Shown here: positions 927 to 16,046 of the stretch, piece by piece
How the letters are laid out: each line of letters opens with the position of its first letter
Position numbering within the stretch: the first letter of the stretch is position 1
Source: Chlamydiia bacterium
GTDB taxonomy: Bacteria; Chlamydiota; Chlamydiia; Chlamydiales; 2-12-FULL-49-11
Direction of reading: 5' to 3'
Assembly (NCBI GenBank): GCA_044359535.1
Contig: JBIKLZ010000020.1
Location: 1-20,840 of the forward strand
DNA: 20,840 nt
Program-made: the position numbers and the translations under genes
Notes under the pieces: model-generated
Seen by the model: only the letters and a program-made list of their open reading frames with translations
Told to the model about the DNA's origin: nothing
The model's database searches: none

Positions 927-2147
927 TTGAGTTTTGTATATCGGATCTTCAGTTATTTTTGGTTTATAGGGATCTTGATAAAATATACCTATGATCGTTT
1001 TTTTCATCATAAGTTTTGTGGGATTTTATTATATAAAATAGGTCTTAAGAGGCAAAAAATTCTACCTAAAGGGGATAAAAAGTGTGTGTGGATTCATGCA
1101 ACCTCTCTTGGAGAGGCAATGTCAACAAAGCAACTTGTTGAAAAAATAGGTAAAGCTAAGGATCGACATATTATTTTTTCTACATTTACCTCTGTGGGGT
1201 ATGAGTATGCAAAAACGTTAAGGGGAGTAGATCAAGTGGTTATTCTCCCTTCAGATTTAAAAGGGGTGATGAGGGATTTGATAAAAAAAATTCAACCTGA
1301 CCTGTTTGTTTTGATTGAAAGTGATTACTGGTTTCATTGTTTAACAGAATTAAAAAAATATGGAACCAAAATGGTGTTGGTAGGGGGGAGGATTTCAGAT
1401 CGCTCTTATAAGCGATTTAAAAGGGTTCCGATCTTTTCTCGCTCTCTTTTTTCTAATTTTGATCGCTTTTTACTCCAAGATAGTTTTATGAAAGAGAAGT
1501 TTTTAGGGTTAGGCGTTTTTGAGGAAAAGATTGACGTGATTGGAAATTTAAAATTAGACGCATACTCAGAAAATGTTTTGGAAAATTACCTTCCAAAAGG
1601 ACGATCTTACATTACTTTGGGGTCAACACATAAAGATGAGGAAGAGAGTTTATTAAAAGCTTTAAGTTCATTAAAAAGGGATGTTACTTTTGTAGTGGCT
1701 CCAAGGCGACCTGATCGATTTTTAGAAGTGGAACAGCTATTAAAAAGGCTCAGCCTTTCTTGGAGGTATGTCGATGAGAAGGGTAAGGGGGATGAAAGGG
1801 TTATTTTTGTTAATAAACTTGGGGTGTTAGATCGCTGTTATAAGGAAAGTGACCTTGCAATTGTTTGTGGAAGCTTTTATAAGTCCACTGGAGGGCATAA
1901 TGTTTATGAACCGGTCCGTCTTGGAACCCCTGTTTTATATGGGCCATACACCTTTAATCAAGGGTCTTTAACAACCATTGTGGAGAGATTTGGAGTTGGG
2001 GAAGAGGCAACACTGGAAAATATTCTAGAAAAGGTCCAAAAAAAGTTAAAAGAGGGGAGATTGACAAAAGAAAAAGTGGAAGAAATCAAGAGAAAATCTG
2101 AGGGGGCGACAGAAAAAGCAATAAATATAATAAATAGCTTGTTATAA
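927..2147 (+). CDS. waaA: Kdo transferase (3-deoxy-D-manno-octulosonic acid transferase)
   Basis: N-terminal membrane anchor, WIHATSLGE, IESDYW, GRISDRSY, GSTH and GGHNVYEP motifs; TTG start 7 nt after leuS stop. Confidence 0.95.
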   Translation: MSFVYRIFSYFWFIGILIKYTYDRFFHHKFCGILLYKIGLKRQKILPKGDKKCVWIHATSLGEAMSTKQLVEKIGKAKDRHIIFSTFTSVGYEYAKTLRGVDQVVILPSDLKGVMRDLIKKIQPDLFVLIESDYWFHCLTELKKYGTKMVLVGGRISDRSYKRFKRVPIFSRSLFSNFDRFLLQDSFMKEKFLGLGVFEEKIDVIGNLKLDAYSENVLENYLPKGRSYITLGSTHKDEEESLLKALSSLKRDVTFVVAPRRPDRFLEVEQLLKRLSLSWRYVDEKGKGDERVIFVNKLGVLDRCYKESDLAIVCGSFYKSTGGHNVYEPVRLGTPVLYGPYTFNQGSLTTIVERFGVGEEATLENILEKVQKKLKEGRLTKEKVEEIKRKSEGATEKAINIINSLL

Positions 2148-2182
2148 AACTTCCTTTGTGGTAATGTTATGCACATATTTAT

Positions 2183-2255
2183 CGCGGGATAGAGCAGTTG
2201 GAAGCTCGTCGGGCTCATAACCCGAAGGTCGCCGGTTCGAGTCCGTCTCCCGCTA
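2183..2255 (+). tRNA. tRNA-fMet (initiator, anticodon CAT), CCA not encoded
   Basis: 73-nt cloverleaf; unpaired C1:U72; anticodon stem TCGGG/CCCGA with three consecutive G-C pairs; loop CTCATAA; GGTTCGAGTCC T arm. Confidence 0.97.
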
Positions 2256-2261
2256 ATATAG

Positions 2262-2292
2262 AGGAGCTAGTATAGATCTAGCTCCTTTTTTT
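2262..2292 (+). terminator. Intrinsic terminator after tRNA-fMet
   Basis: Perfect 9-bp stem AGGAGCTAG (2262-2270) / CTAGCTCCT (2278-2286), 7-nt loop, followed by a T run. Confidence 0.8.
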
Positions 2293-2320
2293 AATAGTGA
2301 AAGCATTATTCGCTATGAAT

Positions 2321-2393
2321 GGCGGCTTAGCTCAGTCGGTAGAGCAACGGAATCATAATCCGCAGGTCACTGGTTCAAGTCCGGTAGCCGCTA
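2321..2393 (+). tRNA. tRNA with CAT anticodon, most likely elongator tRNA-Met (tRNA-Ile2 not fully excluded); integration target
   Basis: 73-nt cloverleaf: acceptor GGCGGCT/AGCCGCT, D stem GCTC/GAGC, anticodon loop ATCATAA (2352-2358), T arm ACTGG-TTCAAGT-CCGGT, discriminator A. Confidence 0.93.
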
Positions 2394-2394
2394 T
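2352..2394 (+). repeat. attL core (3' half of tRNA)
   Basis: ATCATAATCCGCAGGTCACTGGTTCAAGTCCGGTAGCCGCTAT, identical to 10904-10946. Confidence 0.96.
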
Positions 2395-2476
2395 AATTCT
2401 AACAGGTTAAAACAAAGCATATTCCGCAAAATTCAACTTGGAAGAAACTTGCTAATATATTATTTTATTCTGCTAT

Positions 2477-2493
2477 GGTGCAAATCCGGTGCA
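2477..2493 (+). promoter_or_regulatory. Putative integrase arm-type binding sites, left end
   Basis: GGTGCA at 2477-2482 and 2488-2493 (11-bp period); same pair recurs near attR. Confidence 0.65.
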
Positions 2494-2562
2494 GTAAAAA
2501 TAGTTTTATGGAGTAAGTACCATTCAACCAATAAATCTTAATATACAAGGGTTGAACAAGGT

Positions 2563-3624
2563 ATGGCATCAATTTATAAAAGAAAGGATTCGAAAGGTAT
2601 AAAATGGAGAGTGGTGATACGTCTTAAAGGACATCCTACTGTATGTGAGACCTTTGATAGAAAACAAGAAGCAGAAGATTGGGCAAATCAAACTGAACAT
2701 AAAATTAAGTTAGGCAAATATAATTTTGAGCAGAATAAACACCTTAATTTATTCTCTCAGTTAGTTGAGAGATTTATGTTAGATGGCTTATTAGAACATC
2801 ATAAATCAAAAAGAGATACCCTCCGTCATTTAGAGTATTGGAAAAATCGTTTAGGTAAATATTCTCTAAATTTTATTAATTCCGAACGCCTTGGTAAAGA
2901 ACGAATGTTCTTAAATGAGACTCCTATTTCAAAAGGTACAAAAAGAAGTCCTGCAACTACAAATAGATATATGGCAACACTTTCTTTAGTTTTAAACTAC
3001 GGAGTAAAGTCCCTTAAATGGATAAGTGAAAATCCTTGCCTGCATCTAAAAAAGTTAAAGGAAAATTCAGGTAGAGATAGGGTTCTTTCTTATGAGGAGA
3101 TTAAAAAACTATTATCTACGTGTAGGGATAGTAGATCTCCTTATCTATATTGCATTGTTCTTTTGGGATTTACTACAGGAGCTCGTCTTGGAGAAATCTT
3201 AAATCTTGAATGGCGTGATATTGACTTTGATAATCAAATAGCATCATTAAGAGAAACTAAAAATGGAAGACCCCGTAGTATTGCTCTATCAAATGAAGCT
3301 ACGTTAGCTCTTAAATCTATTTATGAAGAAAAGATACCAGGAAAAATTCTTGTCTTTGCAAGTAAAACAGCTTTTGGAAAAGTTGATATTAAAAGATCAT
3401 GGCAAACAGCTCTGAATAGAGCTGAAATTCAAAATTTTCATTTTCATGATATTAGGCATTGCTTTGCAACTCTTGCAGCAAGTCATGGGGCCTCTAACTT
3501 GGAATTAGCAACAGCAATGGGGCATAGAACTTTAGCTATGTTACAAAGATATACCCACCTTGATGTGGAAGTTACTAAGAAATTTAGTAAGCGGATTTCA
3601 CAAGATATTATAAGTAATGATTAA
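2563..3624 (+). CDS. int: Tyrosine recombinase/integrase with N-terminal arm-binding domain
   Basis: Full catalytic set: TGARLGE (R), TKNG (K), HDIRH (HxxR), MGH, QRYTH (Y); N-terminal ASIYKRK...WRVVIR...TFDRKQEAEDWA; adjacent to attL. Confidence 0.97.
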   Translation: MASIYKRKDSKGIKWRVVIRLKGHPTVCETFDRKQEAEDWANQTEHKIKLGKYNFEQNKHLNLFSQLVERFMLDGLLEHHKSKRDTLRHLEYWKNRLGKYSLNFINSERLGKERMFLNETPISKGTKRSPATTNRYMATLSLVLNYGVKSLKWISENPCLHLKKLKENSGRDRVLSYEEIKKLLSTCRDSRSPYLYCIVLLGFTTGARLGEILNLEWRDIDFDNQIASLRETKNGRPRSIALSNEATLALKSIYEEKIPGKILVFASKTAFGKVDIKRSWQTALNRAEIQNFHFHDIRHCFATLAASHGASNLELATAMGHRTLAMLQRYTHLDVEVTKKFSKRISQDIISND

Positions 3625-3633
3625 AGGACTGAG

Positions 3634-4776
3634 ATGAATAAAGATCTAGATGAATGTAAGAAAAATATTAAATTAATTTTAGGTGAAAATGATAAGAACA
3701 AAGAAGCTCGCATGAGTATCGCTGCTGAACAACCTGTTAATGTTTGGCAAAAAAATGATGCTAATATATTGCTATATGCTGGTCTTTCGAACTATCATTA
3801 TCATGATTTTTCCTCTAAGCCTTTTATAGTTAGCGAATATTATTCTCAAAAAGCTCTTCCTGTGTATTTACAATGGCAAGATGAGGTTAAAAAAGAGGAT
3901 AAAAAGTTATTTCATATAAAATGTAAGCACATTCCAAAGCCTAATCAAAATATATCAGTGTATGGGTATATTAAAAAGCTAGAAGCAAGTATAAGAAAAA
4001 AATGTGAGAAGCGTGTTGTATGGATGAAATCTTTATATAGTTTTCTTTACTTTTTAAGAGAAGACGCCGATCTAGTGGATAAGGGTCTTTTAGAAGATAT
4101 ATTTCCAAGTATAGAAAGCTGTAAGGGAAGGGTTATTAAAAAGGTGTATAAATATAAACGAAAGGGAAAGGAAGAGATTGAAACTCTAGAGATTTATCGT
4201 ATTGTTGAAAATACAGCATACCCAATTGATATTTTTACTAGTGCAGAAATTGTATTAAATTTAATGAATGCAGTCCTTAATGGTCGGAAAAATTTGCAAC
4301 GTTCAGCAGCGCAAGCTTTAGGCTTTGCTTGGGTGTGTCTACATATCGGTCGGTTTGGTATACCTATTCAAGAAAAAGAATTATATTCGATTGAAATTAC
4401 TGAACTCATTGATAATGAAATAGATATAGCTTTAAATCCTTTTTCACCAACACATTTTATTAAAATCAATACTATTCATGGTGTTCATAATATTCCTATT
4501 TCACGACTTCTCTATGATTACCTTTTAGCGTTACCACGTGATCTAGAGAGTAATAAGGTCTTTAATATGGATTGGTCTACTGTACTACGGACTTTTCGAA
4601 ACAAGGGGATAAAGTTATCTTCAAAAGCCCAAGGTTTAGGTCAAATTACATTCCTTACTTTTATGCAAAAGCCTCATGAATTGATTGGTTATAGGTACTC
4701 ACCAAGTAAAATAAAAAAGAGAAAAGAAGAAAAAATAAAAAAATGTAAGAAAAAGATGAAAGAAAAAAAATCTTAA
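3634..4776 (+). CDS. Hypothetical protein, probable degenerate tyrosine-recombinase fold, Lys-rich C-terminus
   Basis: 380-aa ORF 9 nt after int with AAAGGA RBS; segments SLYSFLYFL, IQEKELYSIEITEL, NIPISRLLYDYL, KVF, LRTF, GLGQITFLTF follow the recombinase pattern order without catalytic residues. CDS is secure, fold call is inference. Confidence 0.7.
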   Translation: MNKDLDECKKNIKLILGENDKNKEARMSIAAEQPVNVWQKNDANILLYAGLSNYHYHDFSSKPFIVSEYYSQKALPVYLQWQDEVKKEDKKLFHIKCKHIPKPNQNISVYGYIKKLEASIRKKCEKRVVWMKSLYSFLYFLREDADLVDKGLLEDIFPSIESCKGRVIKKVYKYKRKGKEEIETLEIYRIVENTAYPIDIFTSAEIVLNLMNAVLNGRKNLQRSAAQALGFAWVCLHIGRFGIPIQEKELYSIEITELIDNEIDIALNPFSPTHFIKINTIHGVHNIPISRLLYDYLLALPRDLESNKVFNMDWSTVLRTFRNKGIKLSSKAQGLGQITFLTFMQKPHELIGYRYSPSKIKKRKEEKIKKCKKKMKEKKS

Positions 4777-5057
4777 ACCTTTTTATATCATTTAATTAGT
4801 TATTTTTATGTTATTTTTTTTAAAAGATTGTTTAAGCTAGAATCTAATTTATATTTTTTTGTTTTTTCTTAAAAACAAAATCCATTTCAAAATTCAGTGA
4901 ATAAAATAAAGAGATTTACAAGGTGCATTTTCTGCTATATTCTTCCTATCTCTTTTATAATGAACAAGTTAAAACTGTCACCCACCAGAGAATATTTATA
5001 AACCATAACTTCTGTCATATTCTAGCAATAAAAAATAACAAACACTAGGAGGTTATA

Positions 5058-5264
5058 TTGGCTAGCTATGAATATTGTTCACCCCAACAAATTGCCGTAT
5101 GTGGCAAATACCCATTTACAATTGGACAAATAAGGCATTTACTTTTATTTCGCCATCGCAATGGGTTACAAAATTCAGTCAGAAAAGTAGGGAAAAGGCT
5201 GATGTTTCGTATGGATCTTTTTGAAAAATGGATAGAAGAACAAAAAGAGGTTAAAAATGCCTAA
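5058..5264 (+). CDS. Excisionase/AlpA-like small DNA-binding protein
   Basis: 68 aa; AGGAGG at 5047-5052 before TTG; FTIGQIRHLL..NGL..VRKVGKRLMFRMDLFEKWIEEQ fits the winged-HTH Xis pattern; first gene of the replication operon. Confidence 0.8.
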   Translation: MASYEYCSPQQIAVCGKYPFTIGQIRHLLLFRHRNGLQNSVRKVGKRLMFRMDLFEKWIEEQKEVKNA

Positions 5265-5475
5265 TAGGTTTTTGGAAGAGCAGCTAGAGTTTAATGAAAC
5301 GCACATACAATCCGCTGCAAGTCAGGCAAATAATCTAAGCCTTAGCAAAGAGGAAAGAGTATATGCCTTAAGAGAATTCATGAGAAGTATTGCAATAGAG
5401 TATGAATTAATAAGTTTAATAAAGAAATATGAGGGGAACGATCAAATAGCCCCTCACACAACCGATAAGGTATAA
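5257..5475 (+). CDS. Hypothetical protein (72 aa)
   Basis: AGAGG RBS; overlaps the upstream gene by 8 nt and ends 1 nt before the helicase start. Confidence 0.65.
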   Translation: MPNRFLEEQLEFNETHIQSAASQANNLSLSKEERVYALREFMRSIAIEYELISLIKKYEGNDQIAPHTTDKV

Positions 5476-5476
5476 A

Positions 5477-7309
5477 ATGATTATAACAAAAATTGATAAA
5501 GAAGAACAGGGTAAAAATTCAGATGAAAACTTTGAAAAACTATGCAAAAAAAATGATAAAAGAGAACTTAAAAATATCAAAATTAATTGTTTAGAACGTG
5601 CTTTTGCTAATGAAGTTTTTACAAGCGGAGATTTTACAGTAAAATGGGATGGACTTTTTTATACACCAAAACCTACTGATAAAGAAAAAGACCCAAAACC
5701 TATATGGATTAGTGATCCGATTTTTCCTGTAGCTCGCTTACGTGACTCTGTCAACAGATCTCATGGTTTGCTTTTAAAGATCCATGATGGAGACGTGTAT
5801 CATCTGTTGCCTATACAAAAAAGCATGATTAGAAGTTTTACTGACCTAAGCATTATGCTGGCTGATTCAGGTCTAACCTGGGATTATAATTATGAAAGCT
5901 TGATAAAGAAATTTCTCAATTTTGCTGAGCCTAAAGAAAAAATGCGATGCGTTTATAAGTCAGGATGGCATGATGACCAATATGTTTTTCCTAATGGAGA
6001 TGTTAAGGGAAATATAAAGGATGGAGAAGGCTGTTACCCTATGATTCAATTTTATCCTGAAGGATTTGAAACAAAAGGCTCTTTAAAAGAGTGGCAAGAT
6101 AATCTTTTGCCTTTGTGTAAAGGAAACTCTAGGATGATTTTTTCTTTAGCAATTGCATTTGCTGGTGCATGTGCTGAGCTTGTCAAAGAAGACTCAGGGG
6201 GTTTTAATTTTAAAGGAAGGTCAAGTTGTGGAAAAACAACGTGTTTGCTAATAGCAGTGAGTGTATGTGGGTCACCTAAGTTTAAAAAGAGCTGGAAAAG
6301 TACATCAAATGCGATAGAGGGTATCTGTTTTTTACATAATGACAATCTTCTTGCCTTAGACGAATTCGGGCAAGTCGACTCTAAAGAAGCTGGTAACACA
6401 GCATATATGATAGCTCAAGGGATGGGAAAAAATAGACAAAATAGTGATAGTACTCAACGGAGAATTAAAACTTGGAGAACAATGTTGATATCTACTGGAG
6501 AGGTAGGACTTGCCGAACACATGCAAGAGAAGGGCATGAAAACAAAAGCAGGACAACTGGTAAGGTTTTGTGATATCCCCGCAGAAGTCGAGAAAGGCTA
6601 TGGCTGCTTTGAATCTATACACGGTTGTGATAATGGATCTGATTTTGCTACTAAAATAAAAGTTGCATGTGAAAGTTACTATGGAACACCCATAGGAGAG
6701 TTTGTAAACGTTTTATCACAAGAAAAAGATATTTCTACACAATTTTTAAAACATGCTATGGAAGATTTCGCTGCAGACATTTCAAGAGATTTTGATGGTC
6801 AAGTTAAGCGTGTAGCAAGACGCTTTGGATTACTCTATGGTGCCATCTGGTTAGCTATTAGAAAGGATTTACTTGGGTCATATTTAACTGAAGAAGACGC
6901 AAAATGGGCTATTACTACCTGCTTTGAGAGCTGGCTTAACGACAGAGGAACAACAGGAAACTTTGAGAGTAAATCAATTATCGAAAATGTTATAAGACTA
7001 ATAAGAGAAAATTCGGACAGTAAATTTCCTGATGTAAATTGGAAAGAAAATTCTGAATGTGGGCCTAGATATGCTCAAATTTGGGGAAGGAAAGAAGGCG
7101 ATATTTATTATATTTCTTGTGAAACTTTTAAGAAACACTTTTGCGAAGGTGAGAATCCAAAGACAGTCATTAAAACGTTAGAAGAAGAGGGGATCATAAT
7201 TAGATCTGAAAACGGAAAGCTCTCCTCTGCTAAAAGATTGCTAACCGGAGAAAATAAGCAAGTTGCAAAAGGCTACACATTAAAAATTTCAACAATGTTT
7301 ACAAATTAA
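5477..7309 (+). CDS. DUF927-domain replicative helicase/ATPase (Cch2-like), no fused primase domain
   Basis: GWH, GSLKEWQ, Walker A GRSSCGKTT, Walker B LALDE, AYMIAQGMGKNR, WRTMLISTGE, GQLVRFCDIP, YYGT, RVARRFG motifs typical of DUF927 proteins. Confidence 0.88.
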   Translation: MIITKIDKEEQGKNSDENFEKLCKKNDKRELKNIKINCLERAFANEVFTSGDFTVKWDGLFYTPKPTDKEKDPKPIWISDPIFPVARLRDSVNRSHGLLLKIHDGDVYHLLPIQKSMIRSFTDLSIMLADSGLTWDYNYESLIKKFLNFAEPKEKMRCVYKSGWHDDQYVFPNGDVKGNIKDGEGCYPMIQFYPEGFETKGSLKEWQDNLLPLCKGNSRMIFSLAIAFAGACAELVKEDSGGFNFKGRSSCGKTTCLLIAVSVCGSPKFKKSWKSTSNAIEGICFLHNDNLLALDEFGQVDSKEAGNTAYMIAQGMGKNRQNSDSTQRRIKTWRTMLISTGEVGLAEHMQEKGMKTKAGQLVRFCDIPAEVEKGYGCFESIHGCDNGSDFATKIKVACESYYGTPIGEFVNVLSQEKDISTQFLKHAMEDFAADISRDFDGQVKRVARRFGLLYGAIWLAIRKDLLGSYLTEEDAKWAITTCFESWLNDRGTTGNFESKSIIENVIRLIRENSDSKFPDVNWKENSECGPRYAQIWGRKEGDIYYISCETFKKHFCEGENPKTVIKTLEEEGIIIRSENGKLSSAKRLLTGENKQVAKGYTLKISTMFTN

Positions 7310-7347
7310 TATGAGGTAACAAAATGAGCAAAAGCAGAGAAAAAACC

Positions 7348-7688
7348 TTTTGTAACCGTTTTTTTAATTTACAGTTACAATTTAAAATGTTGATTGTAAA
7401 CAACTTGTGAACTTTGTAACCGTATAACTGTGTAACCGTGTAATCAAGAAATGCAGGCAGGAAAAAGCTAAAAATAAAAGTTAAGGAAAAAAATAGGTAA
7501 GAAGTAGGTAGGGTCTAAGATTCTATTTTAACGAAATTTAACTTATGTGGGGTATATAAGTACGGTTACATGGTTACATTGTATATATATAATATAAAAT
7601 ATATTTTCTATGTATTGATAAATAAGGGTTTTAGGAAAGATTAGGTGAATGATTTTTTCGTAACCATTTTTTTAATTTACGGTTACAA
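7348..7688. repeat. Putative replication origin: TGTAACCG-type iterons in both orientations around AT-rich DNA
   Basis: Forward octamers at 7351, 7415, 7423, 7431, 7439, 7659; reverse octamers at 7372, 7563, 7571, 7680; 33-bp repeat (30/33 identical) at 7348-7380 and 7656-7688; AT-rich tract about 7579-7625. Confidence 0.82.
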
Positions 7689-7706
7689 AAAAACAAAAGG
7701 GCTAAA

Positions 7707-8768
7707 ATGGATATAATTAACGTGCTAAATTTACTCGGTTTTGTGCCGAGAAAAAAATCTGCGATAGAGTTTTGCTGTGCATGTCTGTATTGTGAGAAAG
7801 GAACTGATCGTTTTACTATTTGGCCTAGCAAAGGTGAGTGTGGAAGATTTTGGTGCCGAGTATGTGATAAAAAAGGAGATGCAATCAACTTACTTAGAGA
7901 CTTTAGAGGGCTTTCATTTAAAGAAGCGTGCTCAGAGTTAAGAATGGCACCAAAAGTCGATTACAGTCCTTTAAAAGAGGTTTTGCCTATTATTGGGGAG
8001 GAACCATCTGACCAATGGATAAATCAAGCGAAAGTATTTGTAGATTTTAGCCACAATCAATTGCTTGGTAGTAAAAAGTTTTTATCTGCTCTGCTTAACA
8101 GAGGAATCTCTCTCGAGACTGTTAAAAAGTTTAAGTTAGGCTACAACTCAACGAATTTGTTTCAACAAAACTCAGACTGGGGCTTACCAACAGAAATTAC
8201 CGGAAAAGGGAAGAAAAGAACAGTTTGGCTGCCTTCGGGTATAGTAATTCCCACAACTGAAAATGAAAAAGTGGTTAAAATAAAAATCAGAAACGCTAGC
8301 TTTAAAAACGACGTTCACAAGCTCGAACCGTTGAGCTATTTTAATGTAAAGTATGTTGTAGTAAAGGGTAGTAAGAAAATTCCTTCAATCTACGGTAATC
8401 AAGATTTAAACATATTAGTAATTTTAGAGTCTGAATTAGATGCTATTTTATTATTACAAGAGACAAATGAATTGATTTTCTGCTTAGCACTTGGAGGATC
8501 TAGACAGCCCCTTGATGCTTACTCTAAAAACCTAGTTCAAGCAACGGAGAGAGTGTTATTTTGTCCTGATTTTGATGCCGCAGGTAAAGAATCTTGGGAT
8601 AGATGGAGTAAAATATTTCCCACAATGCAAAGGATTTTAATTTCACACGGGAAAGATCCTACAGAAGCTTTTCAAATGGGAGTTAACTTGTCGGATTGGC
8701 TATTAAAATTTTTAAATAATAAAAAGGAGAATAAAGATGAAAAAAGAAATAAGCAAAGAGGCATTTAA
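7707..8768 (+). CDS. Primase-like protein: P4-alpha-type Zn ribbon plus Toprim domain
   Basis: CLYC..GTDRF..G.FWCRVC..GDAI..GLSFKEA zinc ribbon; RGIS...F.LGY; Toprim ILESELDA and PDFDAAG (E, DxD); KDPTE. Confidence 0.85.
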   Translation: MDIINVLNLLGFVPRKKSAIEFCCACLYCEKGTDRFTIWPSKGECGRFWCRVCDKKGDAINLLRDFRGLSFKEACSELRMAPKVDYSPLKEVLPIIGEEPSDQWINQAKVFVDFSHNQLLGSKKFLSALLNRGISLETVKKFKLGYNSTNLFQQNSDWGLPTEITGKGKKRTVWLPSGIVIPTTENEKVVKIKIRNASFKNDVHKLEPLSYFNVKYVVVKGSKKIPSIYGNQDLNILVILESELDAILLLQETNELIFCLALGGSRQPLDAYSKNLVQATERVLFCPDFDAAGKESWDRWSKIFPTMQRILISHGKDPTEAFQMGVNLSDWLLKFLNNKKENKDEKRNKQRGI

Positions 8769-9177
8769 AACTAAATTCACCCCTACTGAAGCTTTCTTTG
8801 CAACGGTCGACGAGAAAGTGCTTTTAGAAACTTTACGTTCTGGGGTATCTGCAGTTCCTGGTGATTCTAAAGAGAAGATGTCTATTCTAGGGAAATCTCT
8901 AATGGAGTTTAAACCGCAAGACTCAGTCGAGGTTATGCTATTTGTTCAAGCTAATGCTCTATTTGCTCAAGGAATGAAGTATTTGGAAAGAGCAGAAAAT
9001 CAAGAGTTTGTTTGCCATGCAGAGCATTATATGAGATTTGCCTTGAAGTTACTGCGGTTGCATAATGAAACAATTGAAGCTATAACCAAACGTAGAGGTG
9101 GTTTTGAGCAAAAAATTACAGTACAGCATGTTCAGGTCAACGAAGGTGGTAAAGCCGCTTTTTTATCAAACAGCTAG
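8737..9177 (+). CDS. Conserved hypothetical protein of the type found upstream of HGGxSTG-domain genes
   Basis: AAGGAG RBS; PQDSVEVML..Q, ALKLLR, EA..KRRGG.EQKITVQHVQVNEGGKA pattern; overlaps primase 3' end by 32 nt. Confidence 0.75.
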   Translation: MKKEISKEAFKTKFTPTEAFFATVDEKVLLETLRSGVSAVPGDSKEKMSILGKSLMEFKPQDSVEVMLFVQANALFAQGMKYLERAENQEFVCHAEHYMRFALKLLRLHNETIEAITKRRGGFEQKITVQHVQVNEGGKAAFLSNS

Positions 9178-9212
9178 TCCAAGGGGGTCTATAAAAAAAG
9201 GAGAGAAAGGCC

Positions 9213-9407
9213 ATGCGTTGTCATGCAAAAAGTAAAAGATCACAGGAGCAGTGTAAAAGCTGGGCAGTAAAAGGAAAAAAAGTCTGTCGTATGCATGGGG
9301 CTTTTTCAGGGGTAAAGCCTAAGCACGGACTTTATACTGCTAAGGCAATTGAAGAAAAGAAAATGGTAAAAGCAATTATTGATTCAGCTAAAAACACTCT
9401 TAGGTAG
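9213..9407 (+). CDS. HGGxSTG-like Cys/His zinc-finger protein (short variant)
   Basis: RCHAKSKRS..QC..AV.GKKVCRMHGA.S then KHGLYT; AAGGAG upstream. Confidence 0.78.
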   Translation: MRCHAKSKRSQEQCKSWAVKGKKVCRMHGAFSGVKPKHGLYTAKAIEEKKMVKAIIDSAKNTLR

Positions 9408-9409
9408 AT

Positions 9410-9619
9410 TTAAATAGAATTTTTTATATTTTGAATTTCTTCTTTTAAAATCCGTAATTTTTCGTTAAATTTTCTCTCCTGCGCTTGAATAAAAGAGAAG
9501 AGCAGTACAAATAAACAAGCAAATGAGTTCCCCTCTACATAGTAAAGAATAATATAGCAAACCTAAAAAAGTAAGGTTGTTTTATCACGCAATATAAAGT
9601 TTTTTATACTTATTTTCAT
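9410..9619 (-). pseudogene. Small two-TM plus coiled-coil membrane protein gene with one in-frame TAG (not in ORF track)
   Basis: Reads MKISIKNFILRDKTTLLF*VCYIILYYVEGNSFACLFVLLFSFIQAQERKFNEKLRILKEEIQNIKNSI; ATG overlaps upstream stop (TAATG); TAG at 9565-9563; final TAA 2 nt from the convergent gene's stop. Confidence 0.55.
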
Positions 9620-10311
9620 TATTCAAAAATTCTTTTTAATTTTTTCCACAAGGATACACGATGACTAGAAGGTTTTTTTATATTTTTTTCGTTAAAATTT
9701 GACAATAATATCTGCCATTCTCTCTCAAATATTTCATAATCCACTTTTGAAATCTTTTTTTCCCAATCATCTATTTGAGAAATCAATGATATTACTAACT
9801 CGTCATCCATTTTTTTTACTTGGGTGGCAAAATTTGAGCTCTTACATAATAATAGTTCAAATTTCTGTGTATCAAAATGGTTATTTAGAGCCCAATCAGC
9901 GTTCATTAACTGAAATTTGTTTAATAAATCAATTCGATGGTCACAAAAACTAATATAAAAATCGCTAACTTTGCAGATTCTAGACATAAATTGACCAGGA
10001 AATTTAGTTTTAGGAAACGTTTTAGTCTGATTTGAAATTTCAACGAACTTATTTCTTATTCTAATTATTTCTGCATGATCAGACTTTTCTATATCTAGAA
10101 GAATAAAAATGTTTCTAGCATTAATAAGTTCATAATTGAGTTTTATTGCCTCTAAAAGCAAAAAACGCTCCCTTGTAACTTTTTTTTTAGCAGACTCATT
10201 ATAAATGATTGCTGTGGACAAAATCGTGCCCAAAAACAAAAAAAGTAGGGCAATAATTAGTTTTGGTTTTTTTCTAAGTCCCTTTAGTAAATCTTTTGCA
10301 TTTTTTATCAT
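9619..10311 (-). CDS. Hypothetical protein with N-terminal transmembrane helix (island cargo)
   Basis: 230 aa; AAAGGA RBS; basic N-terminus followed by LIIALLFLFLGTILSTAIIY. Confidence 0.8.
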   Translation of the reverse strand: MIKNAKDLLKGLRKKPKLIIALLFLFLGTILSTAIIYNESAKKKVTRERFLLLEAIKLNYELINARNIFILLDIEKSDHAEIIRIRNKFVEISNQTKTFPKTKFPGQFMSRICKVSDFYISFCDHRIDLLNKFQLMNADWALNNHFDTQKFELLLCKSSNFATQVKKMDDELVISLISQIDDWEKKISKVDYEIFEREWQILLSNFNEKNIKKPSSHRVSLWKKLKRIFE

Positions 10312-10394
10312 TATTCAAAAATTCCTTTAAAAATTCAGAGAAAGCATACCATAACAACCGCTAAACCTTCAAGCTATTAAATTGTCATAATAGT

Positions 10395-10423
10395 TTGACT
10401 TTTTCTTTATATTAAACTAAAAT
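10395..10423 (+). promoter_or_regulatory. Sigma70-type promoter for the RHH-like gene
   Basis: TTGACT (10395-10400), 17-nt spacer, TAAAAT (10418-10423). Confidence 0.6.
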
Positions 10424-10452
10424 TGTTTTCTTATTATAATATTAGGTATCTA

Positions 10453-10641
10453 ATGGAAAAGACCCAGACTCAAAAAAAGTTTAAAACAACTGTTTACATG
10501 ACCCAAGAAGAAGAAACACTATTAAATGAGTTGTTTATTAAAAGGATTAGAGATCGAAATAAAACAGACAAATCAGCATTGTTATGCGAGGGTATAAAGC
10601 TTCTTTTTGAGAAAGAAATAGGGGTTTTGCAAGACACCTAA
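10453..10641 (+). CDS. Small ribbon-helix-helix-like DNA-binding protein (62 aa; start revised to ATG 10453)
   Basis: KTTVYM alternating strand, helix EEETLLNELF, helix KSALLCEGIKLL; the track's TTG start at 10423 overlaps the predicted -10 box. Confidence 0.65.
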   Translation: MEKTQTQKKFKTTVYMTQEEETLLNELFIKRIRDRNKTDKSALLCEGIKLLFEKEIGVLQDT

Positions 10642-10757
10642 AAACTTTGCTCCAATATAAAATCGAAAAGAATTTATACCGTTTGCTGATTAGATAGATT
10701 TTTAAACCTTATAAAATGCTTTGCTATTTACAAAAGACAGGAAGAATAGATTTCCTC

Positions 10758-10795
10758 TGCATTAAGCGGTGCAAAAATGGTGCAATGCACTTGCA
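10758..10795 (+). promoter_or_regulatory. Putative integrase arm-type binding sites, right end
   Basis: GGTGCA at 10768-10773 and 10779-10784; TGCA cores at 10758, 10770, 10781, 10792 (12/11/11-bp spacing). Confidence 0.65.
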
Positions 10796-10903
10796 AAACA
10801 ACGAGTTTTATTCAGCAAGATCAAGTTGCGTTTTTTACAAGAATCCTTTACTATACTATCTAATAAGGTTGGGTGGTGCTGGTAAGAGGGGAAAACCTCC
10901 TCC

Positions 10904-10946
10904 ATCATAATCCGCAGGTCACTGGTTCAAGTCCGGTAGCCGCTAT
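10904..10946 (+). repeat. attR core (displaced tRNA 3' fragment)
   Basis: 43/43 identity to 2352-2394; no tRNA 5' half upstream. Confidence 0.96.
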
Positions 10947-10971
10947 CTTTCTAATTGCTCTATTTATTAGA

Positions 10972-10990
10972 TCTCTTTTCAAAAAAGAGA
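10972..10990. terminator. Hairpin just outside attR, possibly the tRNA's original terminator
   Basis: TCTCTTTT / AAAAGAGA 8-bp stem, 3-nt loop; AT-rich and no clear T tail. Confidence 0.3.
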
Positions 10991-10991
10991 G

Positions 10992-11020
10992 TTGCGTAAT
11001 AGCCTTTTTTCTATTATGAT
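10992..11020 (+). promoter_or_regulatory. Sigma70-type promoter
   Basis: TTGCGT (10992-10997), 17 nt, TATGAT (11015-11020), upstream of 11046. Confidence 0.5.
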
Positions 11021-11045
11021 TTTCTAGCTTAAAAAGGATTTAAAT

Positions 11046-11396
11046 ATGAAAGTAGTCACTACGCTGATTTGTTTTTTGTCAATTTTTGGCTTAACAGAAG
11101 TGTATTCAGCATCCATTAAAAATAAAACCCCTGGTACAGAAGTCTTAATGCATTACATTGAGGTAAGACAGCAGTGTAAATTCATTAGAGACCAAGCTCT
11201 TGAATTGGACGCTGCTGGTTTTTATGTAGATATAAACACCTCTTACGAAGACCAAGTTATCCTTTCAATTCAAAATGGGTTGAAAGGATGGACTTCAAAT
11301 GTCGCAAATAAAATGCTTTTTGATCTAAATAGACACTTGGAAAATACCCCTGGGATAATAGGGTTTAATGCGTGGTGTAAAAAGTACGACATATAA
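11046..11396 (+). CDS. Hypothetical exported protein (116 aa)
   Basis: AAAGGA RBS; signal-peptide-like MKVVTTLICFLSIFGLTEVYSA. Confidence 0.75.
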   Translation: MKVVTTLICFLSIFGLTEVYSASIKNKTPGTEVLMHYIEVRQQCKFIRDQALELDAAGFYVDINTSYEDQVILSIQNGLKGWTSNVANKMLFDLNRHLENTPGIIGFNAWCKKYDI

Positions 11397-11585
11397 AAGG
11401 ATTGAAGGACAGGTTAATATTAAATTCCACATGGGCGAGTAAACAGCAGATTGCTTTAGCTCATGGATGCTTAATCCTCAAAATCGGTAAAAAAAATTCG
11501 ACAAGAAAAAGTGTTTTAAAAAGGAAAGGATGCTATTTATATTGACCTTCCGGCAATATAAGTAACTCATCTTACGCAGAGCTAG

Positions 11586-11990
11586 ATCAATCAAGTAAAA
11601 TTTCTTAATACTTTTCCTGAAGCTCCTTCTATCCCCTGTAGTCCTCTTTCTAGCCCTCCTCGATCTTGCAGCGGATCTAGAGATTCTGATGATGGGAGTG
11701 CTCCTCCTCCTGCATCTAAGACTCTTATCTTGTCCCGCAGACAATCTATAGTTGAGGCTTCTCATGAAGAAGAAATAATAGATTCAGCAGCTTATGACAG
11801 ATTAGAACAACACTTTGAAAGTGATGTCGGTAGGGATAATTTAGATGGCGCTGAAACTCCTGCTACTCCTAGAACCTCTGATCATAGTTGCCCCCCTCCT
11901 CCTCCTCGTGGTGTTCGTCCCACTGGTAGACTTCAAAAAGAAGAGCTTAGTATTCCTCTTAACAACGCTATTCCTGATTTGAATAAATAG
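11586..11990 (+). pseudogene. Ser/Pro-rich disordered ORF with disrupted 5' end
   Basis: The 11730-11990 frame is open back to 11586 (…FPEAPSIPCSPLSSPPRSCSGSRDSDDGSAPPPASK…) with the same CCT/TCT codon bias but no in-frame start before 11730. Confidence 0.5.
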
Positions 11991-12002
11991 GACTAATTTC
12001 TA

Positions 12003-12040
12003 TAACCTGAGCCTTGGTTTAAAACCCAAAGCTCAGGTTA
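12003..12040. terminator. Strong hairpin after the Ser/Pro-rich ORF
   Basis: TAACCTGAGC (12003-12012) / GCTCAGGTTA (12031-12040) perfect 10-bp stem plus TTGG/CCAA inner pairing. Confidence 0.6.
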
Positions 12041-12204
12041 AAAATGATTTTAGATTTTAAGTGTATAGAGGAGAGTCTAATAAATGGAAGTCGAATTCTC
12101 TGCCTAACTCATTATTTTATTCTGACTGTGAGAATAAACTTAGTATTGGGTTCAGATCTATATATGAGAACTTTAAGACCTCTTTAAAAACTCAAAAGAA
12201 AAGG

Positions 12205-12234
12205 TTGAAGAAAATCAAAAAAGAGTGTTATAGT
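12205..12234 (+). promoter_or_regulatory. Sigma70-type promoter with extended -10
   Basis: TTGAAG (12205-12210), 18 nt, TGn-TATAGT (12229-12234), upstream of 12322. Confidence 0.5.
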
Positions 12235-12321
12235 TTATGTAATTATATAATAGATAAGGCCTTTTCAGTCTTAAAATTAGATTAATAATGAATTTTAAAT
12301 ATATAAAAAGGAATTATAAAA

Positions 12322-13425
12322 ATGATTGGATATGTTGATAATAAAGAAGTTGCGGTAAGAGAACTTAAAACAGCTTATTCTACTCAAATAAGGAGTGAAG
12401 GGGAGCAACCTTTACTACATCAAGAAGTTACCACAGTACAACAAAGAACTCAACCCTATTTTGCAGTTCGTGCAAATAACCCTCTAAATTCTACTCATTC
12501 TATTAGTTTTCCCTCATCTCTCCCAGAGCCTGCTGCTACTCCTGCTGGTAGTTCTGCCACATCTAGCGCAGGTATTATAGACCCTGCTGCTCCTGCTGCT
12601 CCTGCTGCTCCTGCTGCTCCTGCTGCTCCTGCTACTTCACGATTTGAGAGAGAACTATCTGATTGGTGGCTTCCATGCCTTGGGAGAGCTCGTGAGTTTT
12701 GCAAATTCATAGCTTCCGTAGAAAGTACTATACCACAATGGATCCTTGATCAAAGCCCCACTGAAGTAAAACCTGATTTAAAAAAACTATTCAATGAGGT
12801 GCCCCTTGTGGCTCGTCCAGAGTTTGCAAAACACTTTAGCGAGGTAATTTCTCCATGCACAATCCAAATTGCATATGCTTTTCCAAAGGAAGATACTTTC
12901 ACAGAAATAATGAAATTTTTAAAACATATTAATTCAAATACTATTGTGGAAGTAGGTTGTGGATCAGGTTTTTGGCTGAAATTAATGCAAAATGCTGGAT
13001 TAAGTTGCCAAGGGCACGAACTTAAATCTATGAGAGAGAAGTGGGCGTTTCCCGAATGTTATATTGACGATCAATATATTACATACCACATTGATGAAAA
13101 TGATCAAGAATATTTAAAAGAAGCAGGTGCTGCTGGAAAAACTTTATTTTTATGTTATCCTGAAAGTGAAGATATGCATAAAAATATGGTCGCCTATAAT
13201 AGCGCTAAGGTGTATTTGGACGCTTGTAAAAATGCAGGTAAAACAGCCTCTATAATATATATAGGCGGCTACTACGATCGCGATCATTCCGTTACCGCTG
13301 GTAAGAAATTTGAAGAACTTCTGCATAGCGCATTTAAGCAGTTTGGAAATAAAATTCTCTTATATGCTCCCCGCGAACGAGCACCTGACTCTTACATACA
13401 TTTTTATGTAGCGCGATCTGTTTAA
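12322..13425 (+). CDS. Class I SAM-dependent methyltransferase-like protein with low-complexity N-terminal extension
   Basis: YAFP, IVEVGCGSGFW (motif I), TLFLCYP, IIYIGG; first ~105 aa are Ser/Thr/Pro/Ala/Gln-rich. Confidence 0.78.
   Translation: MIGYVDNKEVAVRELKTAYSTQIRSEGEQPLLHQEVTTVQQRTQPYFAVRANNPLNSTHSISFPSSLPEPAATPAGSSATSSAGIIDPAAPAAPAAPAAPAAPATSRFERELSDWWLPCLGRAREFCKFIASVESTIPQWILDQSPTEVKPDLKKLFNEVPLVARPEFAKHFSEVISPCTIQIAYAFPKEDTFTEIMKFLKHINSNTIVEVGCGSGFWLKLMQNAGLSCQGHELKSMREKWAFPECYIDDQYITYHIDENDQEYLKEAGAAGKTLFLCYPESEDMHKNMVAYNSAKVYLDACKNAGKTASIIYIGGYYDRDHSVTAGKKFEELLHSAFKQFGNKILLYAPRERAPDSYIHFYVARSV
12583..12636 (+). repeat. In-frame 9-bp tandem repeat (CCTGCTGCT)x5 + CCTGCTACT
   Basis: Directly visible; encodes (PAA)5-PAT. 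Confidence 0.95.
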
Positions 13426-13500
13426 AACTGAAGTGCAATAAGTAAATTAAAAAATAGTTTGTTATATTCTTAAATTCAGATATTTAAAAAAATTATACAA

Positions 13501-13529
13501 TTGATTTTTAAGATTTTTTATCTTATAAT
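13501..13529 (+). promoter_or_regulatory. Sigma70-type promoter
   Basis: TTGATT (13501-13506), 17 nt, TATAAT (13524-13529), upstream of 13569. Confidence 0.55.
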
Positions 13530-13568
13530 AAATGTAAAAAAAATTTTAAATATTTATTATGGAGAATT

Positions 13569-14504: not shown

Positions 14505-14575
14505 ATTTTATTTGAAATATAATTCAGACAGTGGGATAACAAGTTTAATCTAGAAAAAGAATAAAAGGGTTCATT

Positions 14576-16037: not shown

Positions 16038-16046
16038 GGGCTTTTA

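Follow-up and report, generated by a model that had tools for sequence, protein, structure and literature searches.

An integrative island with its own predicted replication module at a tRNA-Met gene of a lake-water chlamydia, and related elements in environmental Chlamydiota

Introduction

What kind of mobile element occupies the 3' end of a tRNA-Met gene in an uncultured chlamydia from lake water, and by what route could it reach a new cell? The question is raised by contig JBIKLZ010000020.1 of assembly GCA_044359535.1, which was analysed in its entirety (20,840 bp, contig C21 in our numbering; hereafter the window) and belongs to a metagenome-assembled genome (MAG) of 1.21 Mb in 57 contigs, rated 92.6% complete. 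Within the window, two copies of a direct repeat enclose an island of about 8.55 kb that encodes an integrase, a helicase and a primase. A first-pass annotation had described this island as a complete-looking satellite replicon resembling the phage-inducible chromosomal islands (PICIs).

Chlamydiae live only inside eukaryotic cells, and their routes of gene exchange are thought to be few, namely plasmids, a few conjugative islands and single-stranded DNA (ssDNA) microviruses. To our knowledge, environmental Chlamydiota have so far been known only as hosts of small ssDNA microviruses. Full-text searches returned no paper joining chlamydiae with a phage satellite, in agreement with the earlier remark that such satellites are little described in this lineage, and none on the HGGxSTG domain. 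The main text of the SatelliteFinder paper contains no word beginning with 'chlamydi'; its supplementary tables might list hits. Searches on islands, prophages and integrative elements of chlamydiae returned only the F-like conjugative island already known, plasmids and phage remnants (PMC7846284 and PMC5010888 among the sources).

We read the island as intact, recently acquired, integrative and self-replicating, and as a member of a family specific to environmental Chlamydiota. That it is an integrative mobile element is very probable, and its autonomous replication after excision is likely; its spread with the help of a phage is a tentative proposal, which is weighed below against the alternatives.

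Integration at the tRNA-Met gene

The island is bounded by an exact 43-nt direct repeat (attL and attR cores in Table 1) whose copies lie 8,552 bp apart from start to start, and the boundaries and perfect repeats of the first-pass annotation were thereby confirmed. The attachment (att) repeat reaches 51 nt if two mismatches are allowed. Its 23-nt core occurs at these two places only in the window (0.00 expected in shuffles) and nowhere else in the 1.21-Mb genome, and the window holds no third att copy. The left copy falls within the second of two tRNA-Met(CAT) genes that stand side by side (2182-2256 and 2320-2394; ARAGORN and Rfam), and an Rfam scan of positions 2000-11400 returned nothing beyond these two tRNAs. 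The first of the pair starts with CGCGGG and has an anticodon stem with GGG/CCC, features that we take to be the look of an initiator tRNA; the second alone is used by the island.

Table 1. Features of the island and its target gene, with window coordinates
Feature	Coordinates	Strand	Description and evidence
Target tRNA-Met(CAT)	2320..2394	+	Second of the pair; still complete after insertion; ARAGORN, Rfam tRNA 64.6 bits
attL core	2352..2394	+	Left 43-nt copy; anticodon loop to tRNA 3' end
Candidate arm-type recombinase site	2477..2493	+	GGTGCA-N5-GGTGCA; 83 bp inside the left att copy
Tyrosine integrase	2563..3624	+	353 aa, intact; inward-facing, next to attL; PF00589 E 2.9e-31; phrog_1 E 7.9e-60
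orf380, element-specific conserved protein	3634..4776	+	Always between int and the xis-like gene
orf68, probable Xis/AlpA-like small helix-turn-helix protein	5058..5264	+	68 aa; HTH_17 E 0.055, weak
72-aa ORF	5257..5475	+	Open frame between the xis-like gene and the helicase gene
Initiator-helicase, DUF927, AAA+, Cch/SaPI-Rep type	5477..7309	+	C-terminal Cch-like helix-turn-helix; PF06048 E 1.9e-61; phrog_1139 E 1.5e-64
Probable replication origin	7310..7706		397 bp, non-coding; 7 GTAACCR iterons (7352-7686) in both orientations around an AT-rich tract at ~7575-7615
DnaG-type primase, CHC2 zinc ribbon and Toprim	7707..8768	+	PF01807 (Zn_ribbon_DnaG) E 6.9e-7; PF13155 (Toprim_2) E 2.2e-5
orf146, helical conserved protein	8737..9177	+	Usual neighbour of the HGG protein; homologues in 13/90 related loci
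HGGxSTG-domain protein	9213..9407	+	64 aa, small, basic, Cys-rich; NF041373 28.9 bits (cut-off 29); phrog_3678 E 4.9e-6
230-aa cargo ORF	9619..10311	-	Sole minus-strand gene; hydrophobic N-terminal stretch; lowest-GC part of the island (GC 0.27)
72-aa ORF, cargo or other	10423..10641	+	Open frame; no significant match in Pfam, PHROGs, NCBIfam, PADLOC
Second candidate arm-type site	10768..10784	+	GGTGCA-N5-GGTGCA; 120 bp before the right att copy
attR core	10904..10946	+	Right 43-nt copy; tRNA 3' fragment

The island encloses a further pair of repeats. The motif GGTGCA-N5-GGTGCA occurs exactly twice in the window, both times on the plus strand, with 0.02 copies expected and 0 of 100 shuffles yielding two. 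Across 251 loci it was present in 16; elements with related integrases have it at both ends, and it keeps its distance from the att repeats (82 and 120 bp in locus L019, 85 and 120 bp in L029, and 120 bp on the right in L033). L052 and L152 likewise carry two copies, one per end, and a single copy was found in loci holding one end (L016, L139, L146/L153, L245, L246 and L251); the hits in L036 and L238 lie outside such elements. This paired geometry, as expected for arm-type sites, suggests binding by the integrase or the excisionase.

The integrase is intact. Among 11 integrases of the family, residues R208, K233, H295, R298 and Y330 are invariant and H321 is nearly so; we take these to be the catalytic set of tyrosine recombinases. 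Its probable partner is orf68, which stands directly upstream of the helicase gene in 12 related loci. In the orf68 family (n=14), HTH_17 matches six members at E<=0.05 (best 4.6e-4), DUF6462 seven and Tn916-Xis one, and the proteins share a tail of the form ...GKRLxxRxDLFExWIE. The small helix-turn-helix (HTH) protein that had been called Xis-like is probably of the Xis/AlpA type; all of these matches fall below the cut-offs.

Host and state of the site in relatives

The flanking genes assign the host to the chlamydiae, as the first-pass annotation had supposed. Upstream of the tRNA pair lie the 3' end of leuS and the Kdo transferase gene (kdtA). A maximum-likelihood tree of KdtA (11 rows) included four outgroups, which carry the labels Francisella, Rickettsiaceae, Mesorhizobium and Planctomycetaceae. 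In it the window groups within a clade holding six chlamydia-labelled genomes, at a support of 100/99; 'Candidatus Acheromyda' is filed under Rhabdochlamydiaceae. A match to the histone-like protein Hc1 is also present, a family which in a control matched Bacteroides too and is therefore not exclusive. The order leuS-kdtA-tRNAMet-tRNAMet is common to 17 of 21 related loci of the same taxonomic family, the other four ending before the tRNAs. All sequencing runs found to hold the island sequence are lake-water metagenomes, and the host is described here as an uncultured chlamydia from lake water.

Occupancy of the site varies among these relatives, so the element has not become fixed. Seven same-genus loci extend as far as the tRNAs, and in none of them does an integrase come after the tRNA pair; this speaks for a recent arrival of the island. 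A related integrase follows the same pair in five of ten loci from other genera, two of these being 69-71% identical. The closest relative (KdtA 74% identical) has 759 bp between the tRNA and the next gene in common, as against 12.2 kb in the window. The island (2395-10903) has a GC fraction of 0.326, lower than all 110 genome windows of the same size, and its tetranucleotide distance is reached by 2% of such windows. Sequence and comparison thus show that the island entered the 3' end of the tRNA-Met gene by site-specific recombination, rebuilding the tRNA in the process.

Replication module

The gene order int - xis/alpA-like - helicase - origin - primase, which had been noted earlier as PICI-like, was recovered. 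Library scans covered 11 open reading frames (ORFs) against Pfam, PHROGs and NCBIfam, and the intact integrase, helicase, probable origin and primase of the first-pass annotation were all borne out, by PF00589, DUF927, the seven GTAACCR sites and the DnaG/Toprim matches, respectively.

The central gene encodes a predicted initiator-helicase in which the Walker A GKT and DE motifs are invariant. Its C-terminal HTH gives a weak match to HTH_56 (PF18662, E 0.004) and a clearer one to NF047345 (E 2.1e-17). Searched against the PDB, a profile of the helicase family matched 8tch_A ('Pathogenicity island protein', E 5.5e-29) and 5dgk_A ('Active helicase', E 6.2e-22), which identifies a staphylococcal pathogenicity-island protein and the helicase of the staphylococcal cassette chromosome mec (SCCmec) as the closest solved relatives.

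All seven GTAACCR sites of the window lie between the helicase and primase genes, where 2.0 would be expected in the window and 0 of 100 shuffles reach seven. The region is therefore a probable origin of replication. The primase has further matches to phrog_47 (E 1.5e-22) and TIGR01391 (E 1.7e-16).

This arrangement agrees with what is described for Staphylococcus aureus pathogenicity islands (SaPIs). According to the available part of PMC7581432, the SCCmec protein Cch has a DUF927 domain and is a relative of SaPIbov1's Rep helicase, the origin that SaPI Rep recognises consists of iterons lying directly downstream of the rep gene, and elements with such Rep/Cch helicases also encode a primase. 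The window likewise has iterons just 3' of the helicase gene and a primase of its own. With a DUF927 domain, a P-loop, a predicted C-terminal DNA-binding domain and downstream iterons, the helicase is placed by sequence in the DUF927/Cch/SaPI-Rep class.

Related elements

Relatives of the helicase at 28-37% identity were found in eight of the 61 nearest genomes, the window's own included, and in 229 of 256 candidate stretches of a collection of species representatives. Among these relatives, 80 loci were kept; the record titles of 28 are chlamydial, and most of the others are proteobacterial. When 11 island proteins were compared with 90 related loci by tblastn, the helicase was found in 90, the integrase in 44, the primase in 27, orf146 in 13, orf68 in 12, orf380 in eight and the HGG protein in six.

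A tRNA precedes the integrase in 18 loci. Ten of them have exact repeats of 29-77 nt that bound 7.9-13.2 kb, one has a repeat of 13 nt only and seven have none. As in the window, the repeats begin in the anticodon loop and extend to the tRNA 3' end, and the targets are tRNA-Met, Lys, Tyr, Leu, Asn and Thr. Nine of the ten delimited elements come from chlamydial records (Chlamydiota MAGs) and one is gammaproteobacterial. They share the gene order of the window: int, a protein of 360-500 aa, a small xis-like HTH gene, helicase, primase, an orf146-like gene, HGG and cargo. The window itself is a mosaic, in which int-orf380-orf68 is nearest one group (integrase 56-71% identical) and primase-orf146-HGG is nearest another.

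The gammaproteobacterial member (L024, a MAG labelled Thiohalobacter) is a 7.9-kb element at 4166-12079 in a tRNA-Thr gene, and with it the backbone extends beyond the chlamydiae. The integrase of L024 shares 37% identity with that of the window, and its DUF927 protein of 908 aa has an N-terminal extension, maybe a fused primase domain, with GTAAC-type repeats after the gene. Within the chlamydial order, the helicase family was found in 21 of 200 scored genomes, and at least one family marker (helicase or TerS-like, see below) in 39 of 200 sampled genomes.

Sister elements differ in their cargo. Ankyrin-repeat proteins occur in three of the ten (L019:13185-15478, L020:8903-9952 and L082:14399-15334), HepT/MNT toxin-antitoxin pairs in two (L043:16300-16924 and L046:15403-16021), and L029 carries PD-(D/E)XK nucleases with a DUF1016/YhcG protein. 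In two metagenome contigs, L246 shows a decayed integrase fragment of 51 aa (~8340-8761) just past an attR-like tRNA-Met fragment, and L251 holds two full integrases 11 kb apart (4387-5445 and 15324-16355); tandem and decaying copies of such elements thus occur. L246 had also been considered as a permuted (excised) form, and was rejected as such, being an element followed by attR and the decayed integrase fragment.

The conserved orf380 keeps its place between int and the xis-like gene. It has no match in Pfam, PHROG, NCBIfam or PADLOC, and none of its 29 homologues is named. In its Atlas model (mean pLDDT 0.49), residues 191-360 weakly resemble the catalytic fold of tyrosine recombinases (TM 0.30-0.34), and one Atlas feature match is to a telomere-resolvase cluster (score 0.93). 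A tyrosine-recombinase domain in its C-terminal half is not claimed, as hhalign against the family integrases gave a probability of 0.5% and a PDB sequence search gave no support.

Proteins with possible links to packaging

Two small genes follow the primase. The first-pass annotation had seen here a pair of HGGxSTG-like proteins; one HGG protein is indeed present, just under the family cut-off, and its partner is orf146 and not a second HGG protein. On the strength of its relatives, the HGG protein is possibly related to packaging. The homologue in the related element L043 matches phrog_9231 ('terminase small subunit', E 2.5e-5), and by tblastn it matches 22 phage records, Bacillus phages among them, mostly as the first gene of the record and annotated as a putative small terminase in seven of the 22. 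In one record so annotated, a large terminase and a portal gene follow, and in another a pac site is annotated just before the gene. The window's HGG protein is about 12 residues short compared with its relatives.

No family match (Pfam, PHROGs) or PDB match was obtained for orf146, which has 146 aa as against 188-229 aa in relatives. Its Atlas model aligns with unnamed clusters at TM 0.72-0.74, in one of which viruses make up half of those members whose taxon is recorded. Compared with two phage HGG proteins, orf146 gave hhalign probabilities of 0.1% and 7%.

A further candidate occurs in sister elements. A protein of 122-132 aa that matches phrog_2538 ('terminase small subunit', E 8.5e-12 to 6.1e-5) and Pfam HTH_Tnp_1_2 stands right after the primase gene in four of the ten related elements, and is here called TerS-like after the small terminase subunit (TerS). 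It was found in 25 of 200 genomes of the order, seven of which also have the helicase. In six further loci (L236-L241; genomes G038, G162, G206, G037 and G109), it lies in all six cases in a small island with another replicase (phrog_239, phrog_2373 or phrog_1156) in place of DUF927. These islands sit at tRNA-Met and tRNA-Asn; att repeats of 32-44 nt bound 7.6-11.3 kb in three of the six, a related integrase is nearby in five, and no structural gene was matched among the 60 ORFs scanned. The islands therefore seem to swap replication modules. A PDB search with the TerS-like profile returned designed helical-repeat proteins only and was uninformative.

Likeness to known mobile elements

The kind of element is already known: small tRNA-integrating islands with their own replicon and without transfer genes include PICIs, tycheposons and the DUF927 islands mobilised by IncA/C plasmids, as far as the available sources describe them, and the window's island is assigned here on that likeness. 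New features are the host phylum, the conserved genes orf380 and orf146/HGG, a helicase-origin-primase layout that is split, and the geometry of the arm sites.

The closest overall resemblance is to the PICIs of Gram-negative bacteria (e.g. EcCICFT073), which share a unidirectional order of int, alpA-like gene and primase/helicase, an origin beside the replication gene, a size of ~8-15 kb and the lack of tail and lysis genes; DUF927 proteins are counted in their 'Primase' family in the available part of PMC10111431. The island differs in that helicase and DnaG-type primase are separate genes with the origin between them, in the conserved 380-aa gene between int and xis, in having no recognisable capsid-morphogenesis gene or terS, and in the phylum of its host. 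Measured against the five core components of a PICI as listed in PMC10085698, the integrase and a primase-replicase module with an adjacent origin are present, and no capsid-morphogenesis match was found among the 11 ORFs (Pfam, PHROGs). The regulation component (an alpA, merR or stl homologue) has a candidate in orf68 with its sub-threshold HTH_17 match, and the small-terminase component one in the HGG protein through its relatives. Tail and holin genes, which the rule forbids, were likewise not found. With SaPIbov1-type islands it shares the DUF927-type self-loading initiator-helicase, the iteron origin directly downstream (described in the available part of PMC7581432), a primase of its own and the best PDB match. 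By the same source SaPI primases belong to the AEP (archaeo-eukaryotic primase) type, unlike the DnaG/Toprim enzyme of the island, and SaPIs have terS, genes for capsid size and a divergently oriented stl repressor, of which the island shows no recognisable counterpart.

Tycheposons of Prochlorococcus and other marine bacteria, as presented in the available text of 10.1101/2020.12.28.424599, resemble the island in their tRNA sites, inward-facing tyrosine integrase, excisionase, swappable primase/helicase and cargo, in having cargo or terS versions within one family, and in the piling up of extra island DNA at the tRNA. Their general architecture, an inward-facing site-specific integrase at a tRNA with a small replication module and cargo, is that of the window. 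Membership is defined by lineage-specific integrases and hallmark profiles, so the likeness drawn here is one of description, and the present host is an obligate intracellular chlamydia.

SCC elements use serine recombinases (Ccr) and the rlmH site, and the alpha protein of satellite P4 is a fused primase-helicase of a different helicase family. The island nevertheless shares with the Cch operon of SCCmec a DUF927 MCM-like helicase with a C-terminal Cch-type HTH (PDB 5dgk_A), and with P4 an integrase at a tRNA, a probable AlpA-type regulator, a primase-helicase replicon and a size of ~10 kb; its 11 ORFs include no match to psu, sid, delta, epsilon or alpha (PHROGs, Pfam). In SCCmec, an SSB partner stands in place of the DnaG primase (PMC7581432, in its available part). 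Islands of the MGIVchHai6 type, mobilised by IncA/C plasmids, have int, xis, a DUF927 protein and no transfer machinery of their own, according to the available part of PMC4958241; their integration site is trmE, mobI and promoters dependent on AcaCD are among their features, and they are transferred by conjugation. None of this was found for the island.

Two further classes were considered. A prophage, complete or defective, was rejected, since no capsid, portal, large-terminase, tail or lysis genes or their remnants were found in the scans of the window and of the ten sister elements. The 11 ORFs have no match to capsid, portal, terminase, tail, lysis, relaxase or type IV secretion system (T4SS) families in Pfam, PHROGs or NCBIfam, as the first-pass annotation had already noted for capsid, tail, relaxase and T4SS genes. 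In the ten related elements, 0 of 117 ORFs match capsid, portal, large-terminase, tail or relaxase families in Pfam, and the same holds in PHROGs for 77 of the 117, the 40 already named by Pfam having been left out. With respect to integrative mobilisable elements, the 11 ORFs contain no relaxase or Mob family and the genome no T4SS coupling protein.

Helper search and population data

Tailed-phage head genes do occur in MAGs of the order. Three contigs (L125, the whole 14.2-kb contig G015:C28; L126, G047:C59, 16.7 kb; and L127, G034:C18:45000-64999) carry small and large terminases, portal, HK97-type major head protein and adaptors, and one of the three comes from the window's own taxonomic family. 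The window's genome has no match to any of their ORFs, which leaves binning as the sole ground for assigning them a host. Head genes and the helicase occur together in three of six genomes as against 18 of 194 (Fisher p 0.016); with tiny numbers, related genomes and confounding by bin size and contamination, this co-occurrence is a mere lead and is not counted. In print, the available portions of PMC7846284 and PMC5010888 describe two chlamydial plasmids with terminase and tail genes, and an island beside tRNA-Thr that contains a large-terminase gene, so that traces of tailed phages in chlamydiae have already been described.

Part of the island is held by 24 sequencing runs, all lake or freshwater metagenomes of 2019-2024, and 13 of these hold at least half of the sampled words; one of the 24 may be the source of the window. 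Contigs of four lake runs (2020-2024) cover the island with 0 differing letters. In all four runs the contigs break inside the att repeats, and none bridges from flank to island past the repeat. Four of seven orf380-bearing metagenome loci were examined for circular forms and showed no terminal overlap.

Modes of spread

The reading that we prefer runs as follows. On an unknown signal, the integrase and the Xis-like protein would excise a circle of ~8.55 kb; the helicase would load itself onto the GTAACCR iterons, and the primase together with the host polymerase would copy the circle. A helper would supply the particle in which copies are exported from the cell. As the island carries no transfer or structural genes, this helper would most likely be a tailed phage, with the conserved pair of orf146 and the HGGxSTG protein, or in sister elements a TerS-like protein, steering packaging, in a satellite lifestyle like that of PICIs. 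Given the TerS-like and HGG proteins of the family, a satellite is a plausible reading; dependence on a phage helper is held tentatively, at slightly less than an even chance, and the complete chain from excision to export is likewise possible rather than probable.

A number of findings weigh against phage-assisted spread of a self-replicating circle. Concerning replication, the long iteron-bearing gap after the helicase gene occurs in two of 11 elements only, the window's and L024; L019 and L029 have short post-helicase gaps (105 and 90 bp) in which a 7-mer is repeated two- to threefold, and in the other elements the next gene follows at once. No divergent gene for an stl-type repressor is evident in the island. 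Concerning packaging, small-terminase and capsid-morphogenesis families gave no match to the window's proteins at E<=0.01 (Pfam, PHROGs), the window has no gene of the phrog_2538 type, and its HGG match lies below the NCBIfam cut-off. The candidacy of orf146 as TerS was rejected, as hhalign against the TerS-like family gave a probability of 0.2% and neither a PDB search nor tblastn against phages returned anything. Moreover, the 'small terminase' labels in PHROG and in the phage records are annotation and not a test.

The helper itself was sought in the window's genome, in which no HK97-type capsid, no portal and no T4SS coupling protein (T4SS-DNA_transf, VirD4/TraG) was matched. By tblastn this genome has no match to 17 head and other phage proteins from MAG contigs of the chlamydial order or to four sister TerS-like proteins, with the sole exception of a prohead protease query, the hits of which are read as host Clp-type protease genes. 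Tailed-phage head genes are rare in the order (capsid in five and portal in four of 201 genomes, six genomes together), and 0 of 115 ORFs (>=100 aa) of L125-L127 match the window's genome at E 1e-10. Nor did the population data reveal excision. Island and flank depth are alike (9.1 vs 10 in one run, 6.1 vs 6.9 in another), and the contigs of four lake metagenomes contain no attP or empty-attB joint, contigs being blind to rare forms.

The satellite status, helper reliance and excision products put forward in the first-pass annotation accordingly found no direct backing in these data. With at most three of the five PICI components, the island belongs to a class that PMC10085698 sets aside as ambiguous and possibly holding other kinds of elements; the same paper records that the capsid-morphogenesis gene is also missing from some accepted PICIs. 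The island is not filed here as a PICI member.

The alternative that survives best is a shuttle for cargo genes resembling the tycheposons and lacking a dedicated helper. With the same core of integrase, Xis and replicon, it would excise and replicate, and it would spread by vesicles, by uptake of free DNA in a co-infected host cell or by chance packaging, and orf146 and the HGG protein would serve regulation or replication. The architecture fits the tycheposon definition, with sisters that have or lack terS (10.1101/2020.12.28.424599, available text), the cargo of the sisters is typical (ankyrin-repeat, HepT/MNT and PD-(D/E)XK proteins), 3.6 kb of further variable DNA lies past attR as that model expects, and the failure to find a helper in the genome agrees with it. 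Such a shuttle does not readily account for the TerS-like gene, whose retention in many sister islands (25 of 200 genomes, and six of six loci that have no other structural gene) is hard to explain without packaging. HGG homologues stand at the small-terminase position in phages, and the cargo of the window is small and of unknown benefit. Taken together, we consider this route unlikely.

The island could instead be mobilised through the T4SS of a chlamydial conjugative plasmid or island by way of an unrecognised origin of transfer (oriT), as in the DUF927 islands mobilised by IncA/C plasmids. The available parts of the sources lend this some support: DUF927 proteins stand beside xis in MGIVchHai6-type islands (PMC4958241), F-like T4SS genes are known on chlamydial plasmids and islands (PMC7846284, PMC548262), and a 2026 preprint argues that many islands hitch with an oriT alone. 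No relaxase, MobI or coupling protein was matched in the island (an oriT is not recognisable by such scans), the genome has no VirD4/TraG-type match, and the accessory genes of the family (TerS-like, HGG) point to phage and not to conjugation, which makes this route quite improbable.

Slimmer still is the chance that the element integrated once and is now inherited vertically, its genes open and unused. The island is identical in the contigs of the four lake runs, with flank-like depth and no excision joint; the HGG protein and orf146 of the window are shorter than those of relatives; and decayed neighbours exist elsewhere, such as the integrase fragment past attR in L246. A stranded element is, however, hard to reconcile with backbone ORFs that are all open and conserved in their motif residues, att copies that are identical over 43 nt, the retention of both arm sites, and a site that is empty in every same-genus species reaching it and thereby argues for recent arrival.

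An artefact of assembly or binning, for which the 57-contig MAG and the contigs ending inside the att repeats could speak, is dismissed as very remote, because the junction of kdtA, two tRNA-Met genes and a related integrase is seen independently in five other genomes of the family and in named chlamydial records, island depth matches that of the flanks, and breaks at a 43-nt repeat would be expected of contigs built from short words.

Significance

Irrespective of its route, the island family is site-specific, has its own replication genes, uses several tRNA targets and has a marker in about one-fifth of the sampled genomes of the order. The repeated filling and emptiness of the tRNA-Met site, together with ankyrin and toxin-antitoxin cargo, would make it a neglected vehicle of gene flow in the phylum. 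Satellite status would imply that chlamydiae have tailed phages as yet unknown, and the islands would offer a sequence handle for finding them. The broader proposal, that environmental Chlamydiota are also infected by tailed double-stranded DNA phages and that the family consists of phylum-specific satellites with swappable replicons, moving effector-like genes (those for ankyrin-repeat proteins or toxin-antitoxin pairs, for example) between obligately intracellular bacteria that share a eukaryotic host cell, is doubtful at present. In addition, two compact, well-delimited sets of parts, integrase plus att and arm sites and helicase plus iteron origin, might be tried for integration and replication in chlamydia-like bacteria, whose genetic manipulation is difficult.

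Remaining genes and flanking DNA

All island genes but one lie on the plus strand. The 72-aa ORF at 5257-5475 has no family match in Pfam, PHROGs or NCBIfam and no homologue in the 90 related loci, and the same applies to the 230-aa cargo ORF, for which PADLOC was searched as well; by tblastn, the three small or cargo ORFs and the first ORF past attR were found in 0 of the 90 loci. PADLOC recovered no defence system, giving weak DnaG-like hits of the primase alone, and promoter-like and terminator-like sites showed no excess over shuffles.

The downstream flank includes genes for malic enzyme and for a transporter of the TLC/NTT-like kind. The 3.6 kb that separate attR from the next shared gene (10947-14575) contain no remnants of element backbone genes at E<=1. 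This stretch has an ORF of 116 aa whose N-terminus is hydrophobic, small ORFs, an ORF with weak likeness to methyltransferases (12322-13425) and a gene for a protein with Sel1/TPR repeats (13569-14504). The closest relative lacks it, and another same-genus genome has 5.9 kb of unrelated DNA at this place. The tRNA-Met site has the look of a hot spot at which variable DNA accumulates.

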